From the IMG/VR virus record IMGVR_UViG_2734482780_000007: a stretch of 26,669 nt of DNA, one strand, 5' to 3'. The notes beneath the pieces were generated by a model that made no database searches, was not told where the DNA came from, and saw only the letters and a list, made by a program, of their open reading frames with translations. The stretch comes from a virus. Taxonomy: Duplodnaviria > Heunggongvirae > Uroviricota > Caudoviricetes. Of the stretch, positions 9,864 through 16,501 are shown one piece after another; position 1 is the first letter of the stretch, and every line of letters starts with the position of its first letter. The position numbers were made by a program, and so were the translations under genes.

Positions 9864-10010
9864 TAAGCAGACTCATTGTGTTTAGGGACATTGTACTGGA
9901 AGAAAACATTTTAAACATCAGGCAAATAACCAAGTCACCAGCTAAATAATAAGTTAACAGACATGAGTCCCGGGATGAGATTCAACATTACCATTGCCCC
10001 ATTTAAAGCA

Positions 10011-10046
10011 CAAAACCCGCTCATCAGCGGGTTTTCTACTTTTTCT
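10011..10046. terminator. Bidirectional rho-independent terminator (AAACCCGC-TCATCA-GCGGGTTTT); candidate tR' for the late promoter
   Basis: Perfect GC hairpin with T-runs on both strands, about 100 nt downstream of the Q stop. Confidence 0.65.
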
Positions 10047-10075
10047 TAACGTCGGGTATACAAAGCCCATCGTTG

Positions 10076-10104
10076 AAAAAATTTTATCCATATTTTTTGA
10101 AAAA
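10076..10104 (-). promoter_or_regulatory. Candidate late promoter (pR'-like): TTGCAT-N17-TAAAAT on the minus strand
   Basis: Sigma-70-like hexamers with 17-bp spacer directly downstream of the Q gene and upstream of the terminator hairpin. Confidence 0.35.
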
Positions 10105-10140
10105 TGCAAACATCATGTCGCCATCTTCAGCAAAAATCAT

Positions 10141-10893
10141 TTATCTCGTCACCTTCCTCAATTGCGCTTCCGCGTATGCTTCTTCCTGCCAGCACTTTGT
10201 TACCAGTTTACCAATGACGTCCGCATACCCCTTATACCACTGATAATCGGTCAGGTCTGGTACCAGCTTCTGGACATGACGTCGTGCCAGCGTGGTCGGT
10301 AAACGACTAAACCGGTTTCCATTACAACGCCCACAAATCTTATATACCGGTACGCCATGAAACCGGGTTCTTTTTTCATCCAGAACAATCCCTTTACCCT
10401 TACACCCTCTGCACGCTGTGCTGGCTTCGCCCTTACCATGGCAATGCTGACATAGTTCCTTCACCCATTCTTCCTTGATTACAGATTCCCCGCGTCTGTA
10501 GTGTTTCACCACTTCGCGCAATACATTATAAAATCCCGTACCTGAACAATGCTCACAGCGAGCCTTACTTGCCGCAGACCTGGAGTAATCAGCAAAGGCA
10601 AAACTCACGAGGTAAGGAATAATCTGTAACCGGATTTCTTCACTCAATTTGTTCAATGTCGGGTTATCCAGTGCCATCGCGTAATTTAGCAGGCCTTCAA
10701 TCGCAAACTGAGGGTCCTGAACACCAACTTTTGCCAGAAATAAGGCCAACCCAAGTGGTGCTTTCGACTGCACCATCCCCTGCGCTGCCATTACATCCGT
10801 AATTGTTAAACAACCGGTGCCTGTCGCTGGAGCGTCATCGCTCAATTTTGGAGATTTTGGGGAGTAATATTTTGGTAAGGCTTCAAGGTTCAT
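10141..10893 (-). CDS. quuQ: Late-gene antitermination protein Q, 250 aa
   Basis: Q-family protein with Cys-rich zinc-binding region (CEHCSGTG ... CQHCHGKG ... CRGCKGKG ... CGRCNG); GGAG SD before the ATG at 10893. Confidence 0.9.
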   Translation of the reverse strand: MNLEALPKYYSPKSPKLSDDAPATGTGCLTITDVMAAQGMVQSKAPLGLALFLAKVGVQDPQFAIEGLLNYAMALDNPTLNKLSEEIRLQIIPYLVSFAFADYSRSAASKARCEHCSGTGFYNVLREVVKHYRRGESVIKEEWVKELCQHCHGKGEASTACRGCKGKGIVLDEKRTRFHGVPVYKICGRCNGNRFSRLPTTLARRHVQKLVPDLTDYQWYKGYADVIGKLVTKCWQEEAYAEAQLRKVTR

Positions 10894-10906
10894 GCTCGTT
10901 CTCCAC

Positions 10907-11956
10907 TTACGCCAGTACGCCAATTGCCAGCGCGCGATCGATAAAACGAAATATCAGCTCCAGTTGGGAGCCATACTTATCTTCAAATGCCACTGTATCC
11001 GTATGCAGCTCGTTGTGATGCTTTCTGCACAAAGGCAACACAAAGAGATCATGTGCTTTTGTTCCCATTCCGCCCTGCCCGTGACCAATCAGATGATGCG
11101 GATCGTCGGCTGGCATACCGCAGCAAGCACACGGCTGTGTCTTAACCCAACGTGTGTATTTCTCCTTAACCCAGCGGCGACGTTTAGGCAGCTTCATGAA
11201 AGATTCCGGAGACTCTGGATCAACGGTGATGCTTACCACCGTCTTTTCCTGTGGTGATTTTTGTTGCTGGTGGGCGTAAGGCAACGGTGCAAGATTTTTT
11301 GTGCGTTGTTTCAATATGCTGGTGGCGGTCTGCTCTCCCGGTACGATGTCGCTTTCGCGGTACACCGAGCAGATTTTTTCCGCTGGTAATCCCAGCGAAC
11401 GACGCGATACAGCCTCAGGTAGTGCATCCACCACCTGATTGCAGACCGCCCACCAGGATAATTCAGCCAAAGATAATTCCCGCTCCTGCGTACCGCTTAT
11501 TGCGTGACGGATGACGTCAATCACCCATGCTGTCAGATTTTGTTGAGCAAGCAGCTCCAGTGATTCCGATGTCTGGTCACGCAGTTGGTTGTCGCAGTGC
11601 CAGCACAACACCATTGCGCCGGTACCATAACGGTGAATGACTGTTTCAGTGTGATGGTAATCGCCATTAGGCCACTGGCAGGATGTAACATGACGTAATA
11701 GCCAGTCGGACAATGCGCCAACGCCGCCAGCAGCACGAATCACCCGTTCGTTACTAAAAAACGGCAGCAATGTTTTGTCTTCCGCCAGCGGCTGGCGAAC
11801 GGCAGGAACGACTCCGGATGGCAGATTACGCATGCTTTTTGGTTCCGGTTCCACCAGCACTCGAGGATTATGAAATATCTGTATGGATTCACGGCCCGGC
11901 TTAAGGACCACCAGCCCAAGCTCAGGCACCAGAACAGGTCTAAGTAATACCCGCAC
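10907..11956 (-). CDS. ydfU: DUF968-family protein with HNH-like Cys/His motif, 349 aa (GTG start)
   Basis: GTG start preceded by GGAGG SD and immediately after the rem stop; C-terminal CACCG ... PHH ... LCRKHHNELH motif. Confidence 0.8.
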   Translation of the reverse strand: MRVLLRPVLVPELGLVVLKPGRESIQIFHNPRVLVEPEPKSMRNLPSGVVPAVRQPLAEDKTLLPFFSNERVIRAAGGVGALSDWLLRHVTSCQWPNGDYHHTETVIHRYGTGAMVLCWHCDNQLRDQTSESLELLAQQNLTAWVIDVIRHAISGTQERELSLAELSWWAVCNQVVDALPEAVSRRSLGLPAEKICSVYRESDIVPGEQTATSILKQRTKNLAPLPYAHQQQKSPQEKTVVSITVDPESPESFMKLPKRRRWVKEKYTRWVKTQPCACCGMPADDPHHLIGHGQGGMGTKAHDLFVLPLCRKHHNELHTDTVAFEDKYGSQLELIFRFIDRALAIGVLA

Positions 11957-11957
11957 G

Positions 11958-12236
11958 TTACCTCCAGATCCGTTGCTGGAAAGTGCGGGACGCACGTGGT
12001 GGGCGTTCGGAATAAGGCAGCCTGACAGAGATTATCCAGTGCCGATAGTCGAGACTGAGAGCTTTCTTAACCTCGAACCCGCGCCTGCGGTAAGAATGAA
12101 TCAGCCATTCGGCCTGTTCTGCAGTGCATGGAGGGTGCTGGAACCATTCAGACTTGAATGCGTGAGAATACCGCCCGTGCGTGCAGGCAAGAACGGGCGA
12201 ATTATCAGAATTGTAATATTTTGCGTTGCGTGCCAT
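11958..12236 (-). CDS. rem: Small hypothetical protein (Rem-like), 92 aa
   Basis: ORF with GGAG SD; directly upstream of ydfU. Confidence 0.7.
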   Translation of the reverse strand: MARNAKYYNSDNSPVLACTHGRYSHAFKSEWFQHPPCTAEQAEWLIHSYRRRGFEVKKALSLDYRHWIISVRLPYSERPPRASRTFQQRIWR

Positions 12237-12302
12237 CGGTTTTCTCCGGTGGCACGGTGTTACTCAGCGGGAGTTCAGCCCCGCGCAAGATTGTAGATGA
12301 GT

Positions 12303-12554
12303 TTATTCTCCTGAAAAAGCAGAAAAGCCAGCTTTTATTCCGATCTCTTTCAATGCCTGTAATGAAGAGACAAACTCACCTTCGCGCAAGATAAATCCGT
12401 CCGTGACCCGAGCATCCACAAAATTAATTAACGCAGCCCCATTCTTTCGCAAACACATAATGCGGTAATGACTAACAAGATTTCCATTTTCAACGCACAC
12501 AGCATAGAGGCCATCTTCACAAAAAATTTTACGCAGTTCTTCGATGTTCATCAT
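12303..12554 (-). CDS. Hypothetical protein, 83 aa, with its own promoter-like and SD signals
   Basis: MMNIEELRKIFCEDGLYAVCVENGNLVSHYRIMCLRKNGAALINFVDARVTDGFILREGEFVSSLQALKEIGIKAGFSAFSGE; GGAAGGA SD 5 nt upstream; TTGAAG-N18-TAGAAT at 12633-12662. Confidence 0.6.
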   Translation of the reverse strand: MMNIEELRKIFCEDGLYAVCVENGNLVSHYRIMCLRKNGAALINFVDARVTDGFILREGEFVSSLQALKEIGIKAGFSAFSGE

Positions 12555-12670
12555 CAGAATCCTTCCGGATAATTAGCTCTCCCCTTTAAGGGACCATCCC
12601 TCTTATCCCTGCGCGCTACTTAAGTATTTTTGATTCTATTCCGGCACCGTCCAGAACTTCAAACGCGTTG

Positions 12671-12702
12671 AAAATAAAAACAAAAACCCGCCGAAGCGGG
12701 TT
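12671..12702 (-). terminator. Rho-independent terminator of the relBE-hokD operon
   Basis: CCCGC-TTCG-GCGGG hairpin followed by TTTTTGTTTTTATTTT on the minus strand, about 70 nt after the hokD stop. Confidence 0.8.
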
Positions 12703-12770
12703 AAGTGCGGGTGCGTTGAGGATGCCTGCCACATCAGAGGTGGCGAGGGATTTCTCCCCCGCCGGGTCTC

Positions 12771-12926
12771 TTACTCCTCAGGTTCGTAAGCTGTGAAGAC
12801 AGCGACCTCCGTCTGGCCGGTTCGGATTCGTACCTCGCAGAGGTCTTTCCTCGTTACCAGTGCCGTCACTATGACGGTTAAACAGATGACGATCAGGGCG
12901 ATTAACATCGCCTTTTGCTGCTTCAT
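12771..12926 (-). CDS. hokD: Hok-family membrane toxin (RelF/HokD), 51 aa
   Basis: Translation MKQQKAMLIALIVICLTVIVTALVTRKDLCEVRIRTGQTEVAVFTAYEPEE. Confidence 0.92.
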   Translation of the reverse strand: MKQQKAMLIALIVICLTVIVTALVTRKDLCEVRIRTGQTEVAVFTAYEPEE

Positions 12927-12997
12927 AGCCTGCTTCTCCTGTCAACGCAAAGCAGAAGTGTCACCTTCGGTGCGAAACAGAGATGTCATGCTTTGGT

Positions 12998-13285
12998 TCA
13001 GAGAATGCGTTTGACCGCCTCGCTATATACTTCCGAGCGTTCTCTTTTCCCAACAGAAATCACGAAAACGACAACTTTCTCGTCTATAACCTGGTATACA
13101 AGGCGATAGCCTGAAGACCGGAGCTTAATCTTGTAACAATCAGGCATACCACGGAGCTTGTTTGCTTCAATCCGGGGTGACTCAAGTACTTCAACCAGCT
13201 TCTTTTTCAACTGTTCACGTACCGTCGAGCCCAGCTTTCGCCATTCCTTTAGTGCCCGCTCGTCAAAATCCAGAAAATACGCCAT
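12998..13285 (-). CDS. relE: RelE mRNA interferase toxin, 95 aa
   Basis: MAYFLDFDERALKEWRKLGSTVREQLKKKLVEVLESPRIEANKLRGMPDCYKIKLRSSGYRLVYQVIDEKVVVFVISVGKRERSEVYSEAVKRIL; start overlaps relB stop. Confidence 0.95.
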   Translation of the reverse strand: MAYFLDFDERALKEWRKLGSTVREQLKKKLVEVLESPRIEANKLRGMPDCYKIKLRSSGYRLVYQVIDEKVVVFVISVGKRERSEVYSEAVKRIL

Positions 13286-13524
13286 CAGAGTTCATCCAGC
13301 GTCACACGTACTGGCTTAGGATTACGAAGCCGTTCTTTCACTATCTCCACAAGTTCAGCATCTTCATCACTCAGGAGTGTCTGTTTGAACGGCAAGCGTT
13401 CATTGTCAGCGATATACTCGAGCATGAGACGAAGCGCTTCAGAAGGAGTTACACCCATTTTTTCAAGCGCGGCGTAAGAACGCGCTTTAAGTTCATCGTC
13501 AATACGCAGGTTAATGCTACCCAT
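13285..13524 (-). CDS. relB: RelB antitoxin, 79 aa
   Basis: MGSINLRIDDELKARSYAALEKMGVTPSEALRLMLEYIADNERLPFKQTLLSDEDAELVEIVKERLRNPKPVRVTLDEL. Confidence 0.95.
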   Translation of the reverse strand: MGSINLRIDDELKARSYAALEKMGVTPSEALRLMLEYIADNERLPFKQTLLSDEDAELVEIVKERLRNPKPVRVTLDEL

Positions 13525-13535
13525 GTCTTACACCT

Positions 13536-13561
13536 CTTGTAATTACAAATGTCATTACAAG
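13536..13561. promoter_or_regulatory. relO-like operator: tandem TTGTAAT/ATTACAA inverted hexads overlapping the relB promoter/SD region
   Basis: CTTGTAATTACAAATGTCATTACAAG 12-37 nt upstream of the relB ATG. Confidence 0.6.
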
Positions 13562-13854
13562 TATCGCACTACAACATGCTTAGGGCAAGTCACGAAGGAA
13601 GTCAGAAAGTAGTCGTAAGAACGGTGATCACTGTCCGCTTTGTGCCAGGAGCAGCCATTGCTAAGTCCATCCTGTATTGTGCAGGTCAGCTCGTTTTTAA
13701 AGAGTCCGGCCATCATCTTACTGGTACAGACACCATATACTTTGTGACGGTCAGGCTACATATGCACAACTCAACTTATTCATCTATTTTTTGCTTTAGC
13801 ATGTCAGTGTTGCTTTCTCGTCGGCGGGTGAGCGGTGACCTGACCTGTCGATAA
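13549..13854 (+). CDS. Doubtful ORF, 101 aa (YdfV-like), opposite strand across the relBE promoter region
   Basis: Open frame only; low-complexity composition, no clear SD; may not be expressed. Confidence 0.2.
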   Translation: MSLQVSHYNMLRASHEGSQKVVVRTVITVRFVPGAAIAKSILYCAGQLVFKESGHHLTGTDTIYFVTVRLHMHNSTYSSIFCFSMSVLLSRRRVSGDLTCR

Positions 13855-14006
13855 AGGAACGTAGCACGTTTTATGCAACACCCGCATGCGGCAGAAAATT
13901 ATTGCCGAACGTTTACCCCTGTCAACAAGCTTTACTTTCTGAGGCGCGCCAGCCCGCGAGGAAAACAATCTGAACATCAAACAATTAATGACACAAGAAA
14001 TACGAT

Positions 14007-14033
14007 TAAAGATTTTTTTGTGCATGCCGATAG
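14007..14033 (+). promoter_or_regulatory. Sigma-28 (FliA) class 3 flagellar promoter: TAAAGATT-N11-GCCGATAG
   Basis: Matches the TAAAGTTT-N11-GCCGATAA consensus at 7/8 and 7/8, 24 nt upstream of flxA. Confidence 0.7.
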
Positions 14034-14056
14034 TGCTTTTTTAAAAGGAGAAATCT

Positions 14057-14389
14057 ATGTCTGTCACAATTCAGGGAAATACCTCAACCGTTATTTCAAA
14101 CAACTCCGCCCCGGAAGGAACATCAGAAATAGCCAAAATCACAAGACAAATTCAGGTGCTGACTGAAAAGCTTGGGAAAATCTCATCGGAAGAGGGGATG
14201 ACGACACAGCAGAAAAAAGAAATGGCTGCATTGGTACAGAAGCAAATTGAAAGCCTCAGGGCTCAACTGGAGCAGTTGTTAAGGCAGCAGGCAGAGAAAA
14301 AGAATAAAGACGCGACAGTTCAGCCTGATAAAAAAGAAGAGAAAAAAGACGATACAAATACCGCTGGCACCATTGATATTTACGTCTAA
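14057..14389 (+). CDS. flxA: FlxA, FliA-regulated protein, 110 aa
   Basis: MSVTIQGNTSTVISNNSAPEGTSEIAKITRQIQVLTEKLGKISSEEGMTTQQKKEMAALVQKQIESLRAQLEQ...; AAGGAG SD. Confidence 0.93.
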   Translation: MSVTIQGNTSTVISNNSAPEGTSEIAKITRQIQVLTEKLGKISSEEGMTTQQKKEMAALVQKQIESLRAQLEQLLRQQAEKKNKDATVQPDKKEEKKDDTNTAGTIDIYV

Positions 14390-14403
14390 GTGACAGCCGT
14401 ATT

Positions 14404-14427
14404 GTGGCCCTCATCGGGCCACTTTTC
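14404..14427 (+). terminator. Rho-independent terminator after flxA (GTGGCCC-TCATC-GGGCCAC-TTTT)
   Basis: 7-bp GC stem followed by a T-run, 15 nt after the flxA stop. Confidence 0.6.
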
Positions 14428-14825
14428 GCCATCAGCCTTTTCTTTAAAGACATATTATCTTTGTATCATTTCTGATAGTTAACATTACAAGATATAAGTA
14501 ATGGACGCACTCCCAATTAGTCTATTTAAATCGCCACGAGTTTAACTGACAACCCATGATCAATTATGAATTGCAACTATTTCTGTAGTCACTTTTGTGG
14601 GGACAGTCCACAAAACTGCCAACTTCCGCTTCTTGCTCTTAGCGGACATTAGCATAGGCTATTTACCATAACGCCTCATTACGCGCACCGCCCAGACTGA
14701 CTCAGCGCGTTTCTGGCATATCCCCGGTAAAACAAGTAACAAACCACCCGAAAATGAACACCAGAAACGCGACTTAAGAATCTACCCTATGAATGGATAT
14801 GCACTCAACCGAATCGATCTTGGTT

Positions 14826-15815
14826 TCAATCTTTTTTATCGGGATCAGGCTTCTTTTTAGGTAACTTCGGGGGCTTAACTTGCTGATGACTTTGCGTTCG
14901 GCGCGTAAGCCAGGGATGGTCAGCTTTAGGTTTAACATAGTATTTTGAGCGTAAATCAATACGGGCATTATCCACTCGTTCATGGACACTCTTTTCATCA
15001 TCCAGTGGTATAGGCTCCGGGCCATCAACATACTTTTCCCAGCCCAGCGCTTTCCCGTCATACAGAACGTTAATTTCACCGTCAAAGTTCTCGCATACAG
15101 TAACAACCGAATGCCTAAGTCGATATCCCCGGCCCTCACTGCGTACCTGAAACGCACTGCTTGTGTACTGGAAAGTGAGATTTTTAGACAGAACGCGCTT
15201 CGCCTGTAGGCTGAAGATATAACCCAGTTCCTCTTCAGAATGGTGCACATCAAGATGAGCATTATCAGTAGTACGAGGCGACGTAGCGAACCGGTTGTTA
15301 TAGGCTTCAATAAAGGTCGGCAACCATGCATTTGCTGTTTCAATATCACTGATATTCTGAAGCCGCATTTCTTTGACCAGCCTGTCCTGTAGTGTCTGAT
15401 TGGCGCGCTCTACCCGCCCTTTTGCCTGCGGGCTGTTGGCATGGATTGGCTCGATGCCCAGTGTCTTTATCGCACGAGTGAACTGGGTCAGCTCACCTTC
15501 CCGCTCTGGGTTATTTACCCTGAATATACTGTGTCTATCAGAGTAGAGAGCGAGCGGTACGCCATGATCATTAAGGTAACCCCGGAGGGTTTCCATGTAA
15601 GCCCGGGTTGTTTCAGCAGGCACAAAACGCAACGCCATCAACGCACTGGTGGCATCATCAATGAAAACGATCAGTGTACATCTGGGGCCTCGATTTTCAA
15701 ACCAGTCATGAGGTGAGCCATCAATCTGGATCAGTTCACCGTAAGATGGTCGTCGCATGCGACGTTGATATATACGGGCAATTTTACGACGGCGTTCACG
15801 CCATACCCCCCTCTT
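14826..15815 (-). CDS. Transposase catalytic part (rve/DDE integrase core), frame open from 15815; first ATG at 15758
   Basis: IQIDGSPHDWFE ... IVFIDDATSALMA ... HANSPQAKGRVERANQTLQDRL; joins the N-terminal ORF frame if one G of the G6 run (15806-15811) is removed. Confidence 0.75.
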   Translation of the reverse strand, partial: KRGVWRERRRKIARIYQRRMRRPSYGELIQIDGSPHDWFENRGPRCTLIVFIDDATSALMALRFVPAETTRAYMETLRGYLNDHGVPLALYSDRHSIFRVNNPEREGELTQFTRAIKTLGIEPIHANSPQAKGRVERANQTLQDRLVKEMRLQNISDIETANAWLPTFIEAYNNRFATSPRTTDNAHLDVHHSEEELGYIFSLQAKRVLSKNLTFQYTSSAFQVRSEGRGYRLRHSVVTVCENFDGEINVLYDGKALGWEKYVDGPEPIPLDDEKSVHERVDNARIDLRSKYYVKPKADHPWLTRRTQSHQQVKPPKLPKKKPDPDKKD

Positions 15816-16167
15816 CTATCATCCACTTTCTGAGAGTTTCAACGGATAAAGATAAACCGTGTATCTCGCGCAATTTTTCGCACGCAAACGTAGGTCCAAA
15901 ATCAGCGTAACGGCCTTTGAGGAGTGAAATTACTGTTGCTCTGAATTCAGTAGAAAAGGAATTATTAGGACGCTTTCCACGTCGGTGGGAAACCAGACCA
16001 GAAGGCCCTTCATTTCTATACCGTTGCACCAGACGTTTAACCTGCCGAATAGAAATGCCAATGCGTGCCGCAGCTTGTTCCTGAGTAATATGTCGATTAA
16101 TTGACTCCTGAATAATCTGAAGTCGGTGGAGTTCCTTATGACTCATCGTAACAGTTTCTTTGGTCAT
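15796..16167 (-). CDS. Transposase N-terminal part (HTH domain), 123 aa, ends at a stop just after a G6 run
   Basis: MTKETVTMSHKELHRLQIIQESINRHITQEQAAARIGISIRQVKRLVQRY... Confidence 0.75.
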   Translation of the reverse strand: MTKETVTMSHKELHRLQIIQESINRHITQEQAAARIGISIRQVKRLVQRYRNEGPSGLVSHRRGKRPNNSFSTEFRATVISLLKGRYADFGPTFACEKLREIHGLSLSVETLRKWMIEEGGMA

Positions 16168-16501
16168 GAAAAATCCCCCAGAGAATTGTCTGGGGACATT
16201 TTAGAATGGTTCAAAGGGGACATTACAGCTTGGTGTTAACAATAGCCTGCTTCTCCTTGCCTTTCGGCACGTAAGAGGCTAACCTACATGTGTCTGGCAT
16301 GAAATTGGCCTCAGATTAATGTTAAGCGTCTTGCAGGACGCGTAATGTTAACTGGGGCTTTTCTCTACCTGCCGTTGGTGTTCGTGCCCGAGGCAGATAG
16401 CCTCAAGCACCCGCAGTCATTCTACTTAACTAAGATTTCCCCGCAAACCGTTTTTGTCCAGCACAGTAAATATCCAACTAAACCAATGGAGTTCGCTGTA
16501 T

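Follow-up and report, generated by a model that had tools for sequence, protein, structure and literature searches.

Elements of the IS1202 family of insertion sequences (IS) have 5′-TGT...ACA-3′ ends with imperfect inverted repeats of ~24–26 bp. A hallmark of their transposases is Q, rather than K or R, seven residues after the DDE glutamate (PMC10132070), and the family has been split by the length of the target-site duplication (TSD) into groups with 5–6, 16–17 or 27–28 bp (Siguier et al. 2022, bioRxiv 10.1101/2022.12.17.520857). The ISAba32/ISAjo2 subgroup and the transporter IS ISKpn21 and ISKpn65 insert 5 bp (5–6 bp for the transposase-proximal inverted repeat, IRL, of the subgroup) from the XerC arm of external dif-like sites (PMC10132070; bioRxiv 10.1101/2022.12.17.520857); their duplications measure 3–6 bp, and some carry a passenger gene. 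ISEsa1, placed in a separate transposase clade, is listed with 1609 bp, a terminal inverted repeat (TIR) of 15/22, a 439-aa transposase and no duplication in multiple examples (Harmer, Pong & Hall 2023, PMC10132070 Table 7). The present analysis concerns a stretch of 26,669 nucleotides (the window) from IMG/VR virus record IMGVR_UViG_2734482780_000007, a Qin-type lambdoid prophage of Escherichia coli with the gene order rem, hokD, relE, relB, ydfV, flxA, in which a first-pass annotation had noticed an IS-like transposase gene split at a homopolymer. Sequence comparison suggests, with a probability of roughly 0.85, that the split transposase is a broken copy within a transposon of 3.3 kb that belongs to the ISEsa1 lineage of the IS1202 family, carries relBE and has inserted at the start of hokD.

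Ends, target-site duplication and empty site

The element spans positions 12940–16241 (3302 bp) and has TGT...ACA termini. The transposase-distal terminal inverted repeat (IRR; 12940–12965, plus strand, TGTCAACGCAAAGCAGAAGTGTCACC) starts with TGT, and the IRL (16216–16241, minus strand, read there as TGTTAACACCAAGCTGTAATGTCCCC) is identical to it at 19/26 and 22/30 positions, in line with the imperfect repeats of the IS1202 family. The sequence common to all independent copies runs to ...CAGCTTGGTGTTAACA at 16241 and diverges immediately outside it, each copy continuing into a different hok leader. The IRR sequence likewise terminates the element beside relE in plasmids and in other genera, and is homologous to the IRR of a compact IS from Hahella (see below). 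An exact 15-bp repeat, ATAGCCTGCTTCTCC, flanks the two ends (left copy 12925–12939, right copy 16242–16256), so that the left junction reads ...GCTTC ATAGCCTGCTTCTCC / TGTCAACGCAAAGC... and the right one ...GGTGTTAACA / ATAGCCTGCTTCTCC TTGCC..., or in short TSD/TGTCAAC...GTTAACA/TSD. On the minus strand the duplication reads GGAGAAGCAGGCTAT and consists of the hok Shine–Dalgarno sequence plus the AT of the ATG; a single copy is present in the uninterrupted hok locus of pYLMB10a, as it is in the empty sites with 100% identity. According to PMC10132070, IS1202-family elements have a further binding site for the transposase close to either end. Here, the inner IRL motif has a clear second, subterminal copy (GGGGACATTTTAGAATGGT, 16192–16210) as a direct repeat paired with 16216–16234, whereas only a weak second copy is discernible by eye at the IRR end (~12978–12992).

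The DNA on either side of the element is one interrupted hok/sok locus. To the left lies the hokD coding sequence (12771–12926, minus strand), severed from its own leader; it is annotated at the same place in strain IAI1, and by tblastn a plasmid HokD is 94% identical to 12777–12926. To the right, the orphaned leader with the sok/mok/translational-control region (16242–16431, minus strand) gives a full-length match to Rfam RF01794 sok at 16241–16412 (minus strand; 99.8 bits, gathering threshold 59) and is 83% identical to the leader of the intact plasmid hokD. The intact hokD locus of pYLMB10a aligns to 16242–16424 and to 12747–12940 with an overlap of ~15 bp. A 240-bp empty site, reconstructed from the left flank, one copy of the duplication and the right flank, is contiguous at 100% identity in E. 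coli HH97 and contiguous in 4022 of 5426 genomes; in empty-site genomes the Hok coding sequence and the sok/mok leader form one piece. In STO_Bone1B the same prophage gene order is present with hokD and without relBE, ydfV, flxA and the transposase gene. The first-pass annotation had proposed a search for empty-site alleles to define the ends, and a precise empty site does exist in other E. coli. The element would thus have transposed into the prophage hok/sok locus, with staggered cuts 15 bp apart across the hok Shine–Dalgarno sequence and start codon giving rise to the duplication. The sok match is the only one above threshold in the Rfam search, all others being sub-threshold; among these, isrK at 12681–12762 (minus strand), just downstream of hokD (25.1 bits, gathering threshold 50, E = 0.017), is probably noise. 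The hok locus is bordered by a second variable junction where its leader ends on the outer side: at exactly 16431, EC01307 departs from the window and carries a SIR2-family gene in place of the prophage pseudogenes.

The first-pass annotation had placed possible element ends at a 12-bp inverted repeat (left arm AGTTAACATTAC, 14477–14488; right arm GTAATGTTAACT, 16342–16353) and had seen no target-site duplication. The two arms are indeed exact reverse complements, but they do not mark the ends. The left arm is cargo DNA inside the TSD-flanked element, between flxA and the transposase gene, in a region absent from relatives with other cargo; the right arm is hok leader outside the element, inside the sok match, and was part of the empty-site query found at 100% identity in genomes that lack the element. 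As four distinct exact 12-bp inverted pairs, 0.5–3 kb apart, occur in the 26.7-kb window, a repeat of this kind carries little weight alone. The perfect duplication around 12940–16241 was overlooked because the true left end, at 12940, is on the far side of relBE, 1.5 kb outside the presumed one. Position 14477 was also considered as a left end in its own right, because AGTTAACA resembles the IRL tip; the alignment is only weak and gapped, and no hok sequence lies next to 14477.

Independent insertions with duplications of their own were found on plasmids. In pDEC9B-1 and p7_33_46A-2 the target is a different Hok/Gef gene with a 16-bp duplication (CATCATAGCCCCTCCA), in pSTEC2018_166-c it is a related hok with a 16-bp duplication (CATCGCAGCCCCTCCA), and in the IncHI2 plasmid pKM72_1 a third hok with a 15-bp duplication (ATGGCCTTCTTCTCC). 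The element of the IncHI2 plasmid has gained extra insertions, namely a CDF transporter gene, a cytochrome b gene, IS26 and ISEsa2. A cross-genus survey, in which one genome per species was scanned for IRL/IRR pairs, returned such a pair at 16 enterobacterial loci, 2.6–9.1 kb apart. Exact duplications of 13–16 bp are present at 14 of the 16 (pairs 3.3–9.1 kb apart), and the remaining two have a pair with matching flanks of only 4 and 10 bp. The compact Hahella IS (62% identical, 1449 bp), of which there are at least 8 copies, ends in homologous sequences and is flanked by duplications of 15–16 bp at 8 unrelated sites; for this clade, it thereby supports the ends as assigned and the length of the duplication. 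Taken together, the duplications (15 bp in the window, 13–16 bp in 14 relatives, 15–16 bp in Hahella) agree in length with one of the family classes used for comparison (3–6, about 16–17, or 27–28 bp). In Hahella sp. SMD15-11 (locus positions 9926–12849), two copies of the compact IS are found in tandem with ~11 bp between them in BLAST coordinates, an arrangement reminiscent of tandem insertions described for other members of the IS1202 family.

The distinct IRL flanks comprise ~14 hok start sites, one of them in the opposite orientation, and ~9 other sites. This distribution would be explained by a target preference of the transposon for hok start regions. Right outside the duplication on the IRL side, CAA (often GGCAA) is frequent in the enterobacterial elements and in the Hahella IS alike, and may be a target-recognition cue.

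The split transposase gene and the extent of the mobile unit

The transposase gene lies on the minus strand. Its N-terminal open reading frame (ORF), of 123 aa (15796–16167, minus strand; annotated as WP_021511900.1), encodes the helix-turn-helix (HTH) region with matches to Pfam HTH_28/29/32/23 and is cut short by the frameshift. The rve/DDE ORF of 310 aa (14826–15758, minus strand) stays open further upstream in the same frame, so that the C-terminal catalytic part of the transposase frame was set at 14826–15811 (minus strand) from the ORF list, the family hidden Markov model, the motif positions and the ydfW annotation. The two frames differ and meet at a run of six G (15806–15811, minus strand; CCCCCC on the plus strand), as the first-pass annotation had described; its prediction of a single protein of ~445 aa upon removal of one G is borne out by an ORF of 446 aa. 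The repaired protein matches Pfam HTH_28/29/32/23 and rve_3, and the NCBIfam profile NF033594 (transpos_ISNCY_2, ISNCY family transposase) at 463.7 bits over residues 17–377 (cutoff 250), which substantiates the earlier call of an IS-type DDE transposase and places it in the ISNCY/IS1202 group; the second-best family profile, IS481, stays at 130.8 bits and thus below its cutoff of 224. The catalytic motifs are QIDGS (D149), YSDRHS (D210) and GRVERANQTLQ (E253, Q260). By inspection of the motif position, Q stands seven residues past E in the DDE triad, as in the IS1202 family.

The segment 14300–16600 was recovered at 99.9–100% identity in complete genomes, e.g. APEC20/16 and IAI1 (the IAI1 locus matching the window at 99.9%), and 774 genomes hold most of it. 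RefSeq splits the transposase locus into three: a pseudogene with the PGAP name “IS1202-like element ISEsa1 family transposase”, a “helix-turn-helix domain-containing protein”, and “ydfW”. The latter, a K-12 gene name, corresponds to the last 49 codons of the transposase frame (14826–14975, minus strand). Even intact 446-aa copies are given in RefSeq records as “transposase, missing C-terminus”, accompanied by a 49-codon ORF under its own annotation, which is named ydfW in one such record and “hypothetical protein” in another.

Intact relatives have one 446-aa ORF, among them the chromosomal copy of EC01307 at the same locus and WP_000589001.1 on IncHI2 and other plasmids; outside the lineage of the window, every related copy examined is a single uninterrupted ORF of this length. 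These copies read GGGGTT (...EEGLWRERRR) where the window has GGGGGGT. The G-run length in other strains, which the first-pass annotation had recommended counting, was obtained from exact-match searches with 73–74-bp probes in the ~789 E. coli records (complete genome records) that carry the segment. The G6 allele with its frameshift was found in 50 of these, a G5 allele (T>G, in frame, EEGVW) in 5, and GGGGTT in ~734. Thus, the first-pass annotation was right to place a frameshift in the G run, but the ancestral sequence is not a run of five G. The rare G5 allele is likely an intermediate, G6 being the G5 allele with one G added. Two further independent lesions affect the same locus. An in-frame deletion of 27 bp (16075–16101 in window terms), bordered by TCCTGA direct repeats, removes SINRHITQE from the HTH region and is carried by 525 records, e.g. 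ATCC 8739, as the commonest E. coli allele of the transposase; the 273 records at 95–99% identity are taken to be the non-deleted class, since the probe aligns there in two pieces. In K-12, all sequence beyond window position 15010 is deleted, which leaves ydfW and ydfX next to dicC.

The first-pass annotation had allowed for two alternatives, an inactivating indel or a frameshift that controls the transposase level, and the single-ORF relatives and allele counts favour the former. As judged from these alleles, the split is a lineage-specific inactivating mutation, not a frameshift under regulatory control, and not an error of assembly either. Programmed frameshifting, or slippage during transcription, could set how much HTH regulator is made relative to full-length transposase, as happens in IS1 or IS3, and the resemblance is real insofar as the upstream HTH ORF and the downstream catalytic ORF overlap at a homopolymer common to both, a truncated HTH protein could plausibly bind the element ends, and 50 complete genome records show G6 to be a stably inherited allele. 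In IS1 and IS3, however, the two-ORF layout is conserved family-wide and makes use of an A-rich slippery site for a shift of −1, whereas frame restoration at G6 needs a shift of +1 or −2 and the two-ORF form is a rare allele limited to one E. coli sublineage. The ~739 other records and all plasmid and other-genus copies examined have a single ORF (GGGGTT or G5), and other decay alleles have arisen independently at the same locus. The word “frameshift” has 0 occurrences in two papers on the IS1202 family (PMC10132070; bioRxiv 10.1101/2022.12.17.520857), such that frameshifting is unreported for the family there. Because relatives outside the lineage keep a single ORF and G6 is confined to 50/~789 records, the frameshift is attributed to decay, and regulation by a programmed shift is considered very improbable. 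A sequencing or assembly error in the homopolymer is less probable still: homopolymer indels are a common long-read error, but the identical 74-bp G6 stretch recurs in 50 independent complete assemblies, IAI1 included, from many laboratories, hosts and years, and the HTH ORF has been annotated by PGAP as a recurring protein, WP_021511900.1.

A separate question is whether the broken gene belongs to a shorter unit, either a 1.6-kb ISEsa1 (~14632–16241) or the stretch 14477–16353, with relBE, ydfV and flxA as neighbouring prophage DNA. The distance from the IRL to ~14632, where the conserved transposase module of the relatives ends (14610–14635), equals the 1609 bp of the ISfinder length, and the 12-bp repeat is exact. 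In addition, the PGAP name agrees with ISEsa1, and so roughly does the transposase (446 aa here vs 439 aa listed). This comparison was made by the PGAP name and the table in PMC10132070; length and naming agree, ends and duplication disagree. No TGT-terminated, IRL-like inverted sequence lies near 14610–14635, and such a unit has no flanking duplication, none having been found by Harmer et al. either (PMC10132070). The homology boundary with the IncHI2 copies at 14631 coincides with the insertion point of ISEsa2, an IS110-family element. Conversely, the 12940/16241 pair yields exact duplications of 13–16 bp at many independent sites with internal lengths of 3.3–9.1 kb, the precise empty sites lack relBE and flxA as well as the transposase gene, and the right arm of the 12-bp repeat lies inside the hok leader. 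A shorter mobile unit therefore appears improbable. The partner of the IRL is found beyond relBE at 12940, which makes the unit at least 3.3 kb long with duplications of 13–16 bp, in disagreement with the ISEsa1 listing in PMC10132070. The catalogued ISEsa1 would then represent no more than the part of a larger transposon that holds the transposase gene, the partner end being located beyond relBE, and its lack of a duplication is probably due to the assumption of a wrong right end. The stretch 14631–16300, suggested by the boundary with the IncHI2 copies, was rejected as an IS as well: its 14631 edge is the ISEsa2 insertion, and 16242–16300 is hok leader, which is similar among different hok genes.

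Within the family, the element resembles the members with long duplications (ISTde1 subgroup, 16–17 bp) in its TGT...ACA ends, ~25-bp imperfect repeats with a conserved block near position 20, single large HTH–DDE transposase and duplications of ~15–16 bp. It differs from them in carrying cargo and in its apparent hot spot at hok start sites, and ISEsa1 forms a separate transposase clade in PMC10132070; a target preference is unreported for the long-duplication groups. The family, an apparent target-site selectivity and a link to Xer sites are features in common with ISKpn21, ISKpn65 and the ISAba32/ISAjo2 subgroup, some of which likewise have a passenger gene, but the duplication is 15 bp long, the sequence at the IRL is a hok ribosome-binding site, and the cer-like site is internal. 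Membership in this xrs/dif-targeting group was rejected, as no dif-like site adjoins the IRL and the sole Xer-like site lies inside the element, 1.55 kb away.

The structure and boundaries of the 3.3-kb transposon are well supported. Still, several points weigh against the assignment as a whole. It rests wholly on the comparison of sequences, and the ISEsa1 listing (1609 bp, TIR 15/22, no TSD; PMC10132070 Table 7) implies a shorter, stand-alone IS. The ~9 flanks of enterobacterial elements that are not hok limit the proposed target preference; instead of targeting, common ancestry of the copies on plasmids, or selection, could account for part of the surplus of hok sites. Low-level +1 slippage at G6 is conceivable, so that the term “non-autonomous” describes a presumed status of the copy in the window. 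With these reservations, the history of the transposase gene in the lineage of the window may be described as a T>G change that created a G5 run, followed by the gain of one G to give G6. What was a 446-aa protein would now be a 123-aa HTH fragment and a catalytic remainder without a start of its own in its normal context. This copy should then be unable to move itself, and with its ends intact it could be mobilised in trans by an intact copy.

Cargo and the cer-like Xer site

Read along the minus strand, the element consists of the IRL, the transposase gene, a cer-like Xer site, cargo (flxA, ydfV), relB–relE and the IRR. The type II toxin gene relE (12998–13285, minus strand) and the antitoxin gene relB (13285–13524, minus strand) are annotated in IAI1; ydfV (13549–13854, plus strand) and flxA (14057–14389, plus strand) are annotated as well and represent variable cargo. 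Relatives match the window only in two modules, 12940 to ~13650 with relBE and the IRR, and ~14625 to 16241 with the transposase gene and the IRL; the transposase module stops at 14610–14635, and the DNA between the modules differs from element to element. The relB–relE pair adjoins the IRR in 14 of the 16 elements delimited by IRL and IRR, the exceptions being two distant relatives. By this comparison, relBE is a constant module next to the IRR. RelB and RelE encoded on the IncHI2 plasmid pKM72_1 and on other plasmids have the K-12 accessions WP_000534858.1 and WP_000323025.1, and the plasmid and chromosomal relBE are therefore regarded as the same mobile module.

A pattern match identified a candidate cer/dif-like XerC/XerD site (GGTGCGCGTAA-TGAGGCG-TTATGGTAAAT; 14661–14689, minus strand) 137 bp downstream of the transposase stop. 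It is the single match of the pattern in the window, and none was obtained in 100 shuffles. The arms are conserved in the Xer sites of the relatives and the spacer is variable: it measures 7 bp in the window and 8 bp in three relatives, where it separates the arms GGTGCGTACAA and TTATGGTAAAT, which are those of ColE1 cer. The region 14661–14809 is 75% identical to small ColRNAI plasmids (Klebsiella), and two sequences cease to match the window precisely where the XerD arm ends on its outer side. Published dif-like sites for comparison are given in PMC10132070 Table 8. ISEsa2 (IS110-family; a close variant occurs in pSH12_Vir) is found at the identical transposon position, window 14631, in different plasmids, ~30 bp beyond the XerD arm, which suggests site-specific targeting of the transposon sequence. 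Hok proteins were also compared by tblastn with 14620–14810, in case this stretch was the hok coding sequence that had gone missing; no match was obtained there, and the region is made up of the cer-like site and its accessory side.

The relB–relE–hokD arrangement of K-12

The relB–relE–hokD (relBEF) operon of the K-12 Qin prophage occupies the same locus, and the RelB, RelE and HokD accessions of IAI1 are those of K-12. Unlike the window, K-12 has lost the transposase gene beyond 15010, the IRL, the right copy of the duplication and the hok leader, and the transposon has become unrecognisable there because the latter three are gone. Upon insertion, hokD (relF) would have kept its ribosome-binding site, lost the sok/mok leader and ended up directly downstream of relBE. 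As far as these comparisons go, the transposon accounts for the K-12 relB–relE–hokD arrangement. That relBE integrated into hokD was noted earlier (PMC6379469, which cites Ramisetty & Santhosh 2016). In the accessible literature, which does not include the latter paper, no vehicle is named for this integration, and no description of the transposon, its ends or its hok preference was found. More broadly, relBE may be the cargo of a previously undelimited IS1202-family transposon with a plasmid-maintenance cassette (cer-like Xer site plus relBE) and a preference for the hok ribosome-binding site and start codon, one insertion of which made relB–relE–hokD; elements may also swap the variable cargo that lies between their Xer site and relBE. 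We advance this wider proposal tentatively, at a little under even odds.

By itself, the frameshift is routine gene decay in what is already a RefSeq pseudogene, and the K-12 “ydfW” is unmasked as a mere transposase tail of 49 codons. The locus does, for one of the most studied toxin–antitoxin systems, show by what vehicle relBE could have entered the Qin prophage and been joined to hokD, and the ends, the duplication and the empty site of this vehicle are all in hand. It also offers a likely answer to an oddity of the IS1202 literature, namely ISEsa1 without a target duplication, and points to a second target selectivity in the IS1202 family, for hok start regions besides dif-like sites.

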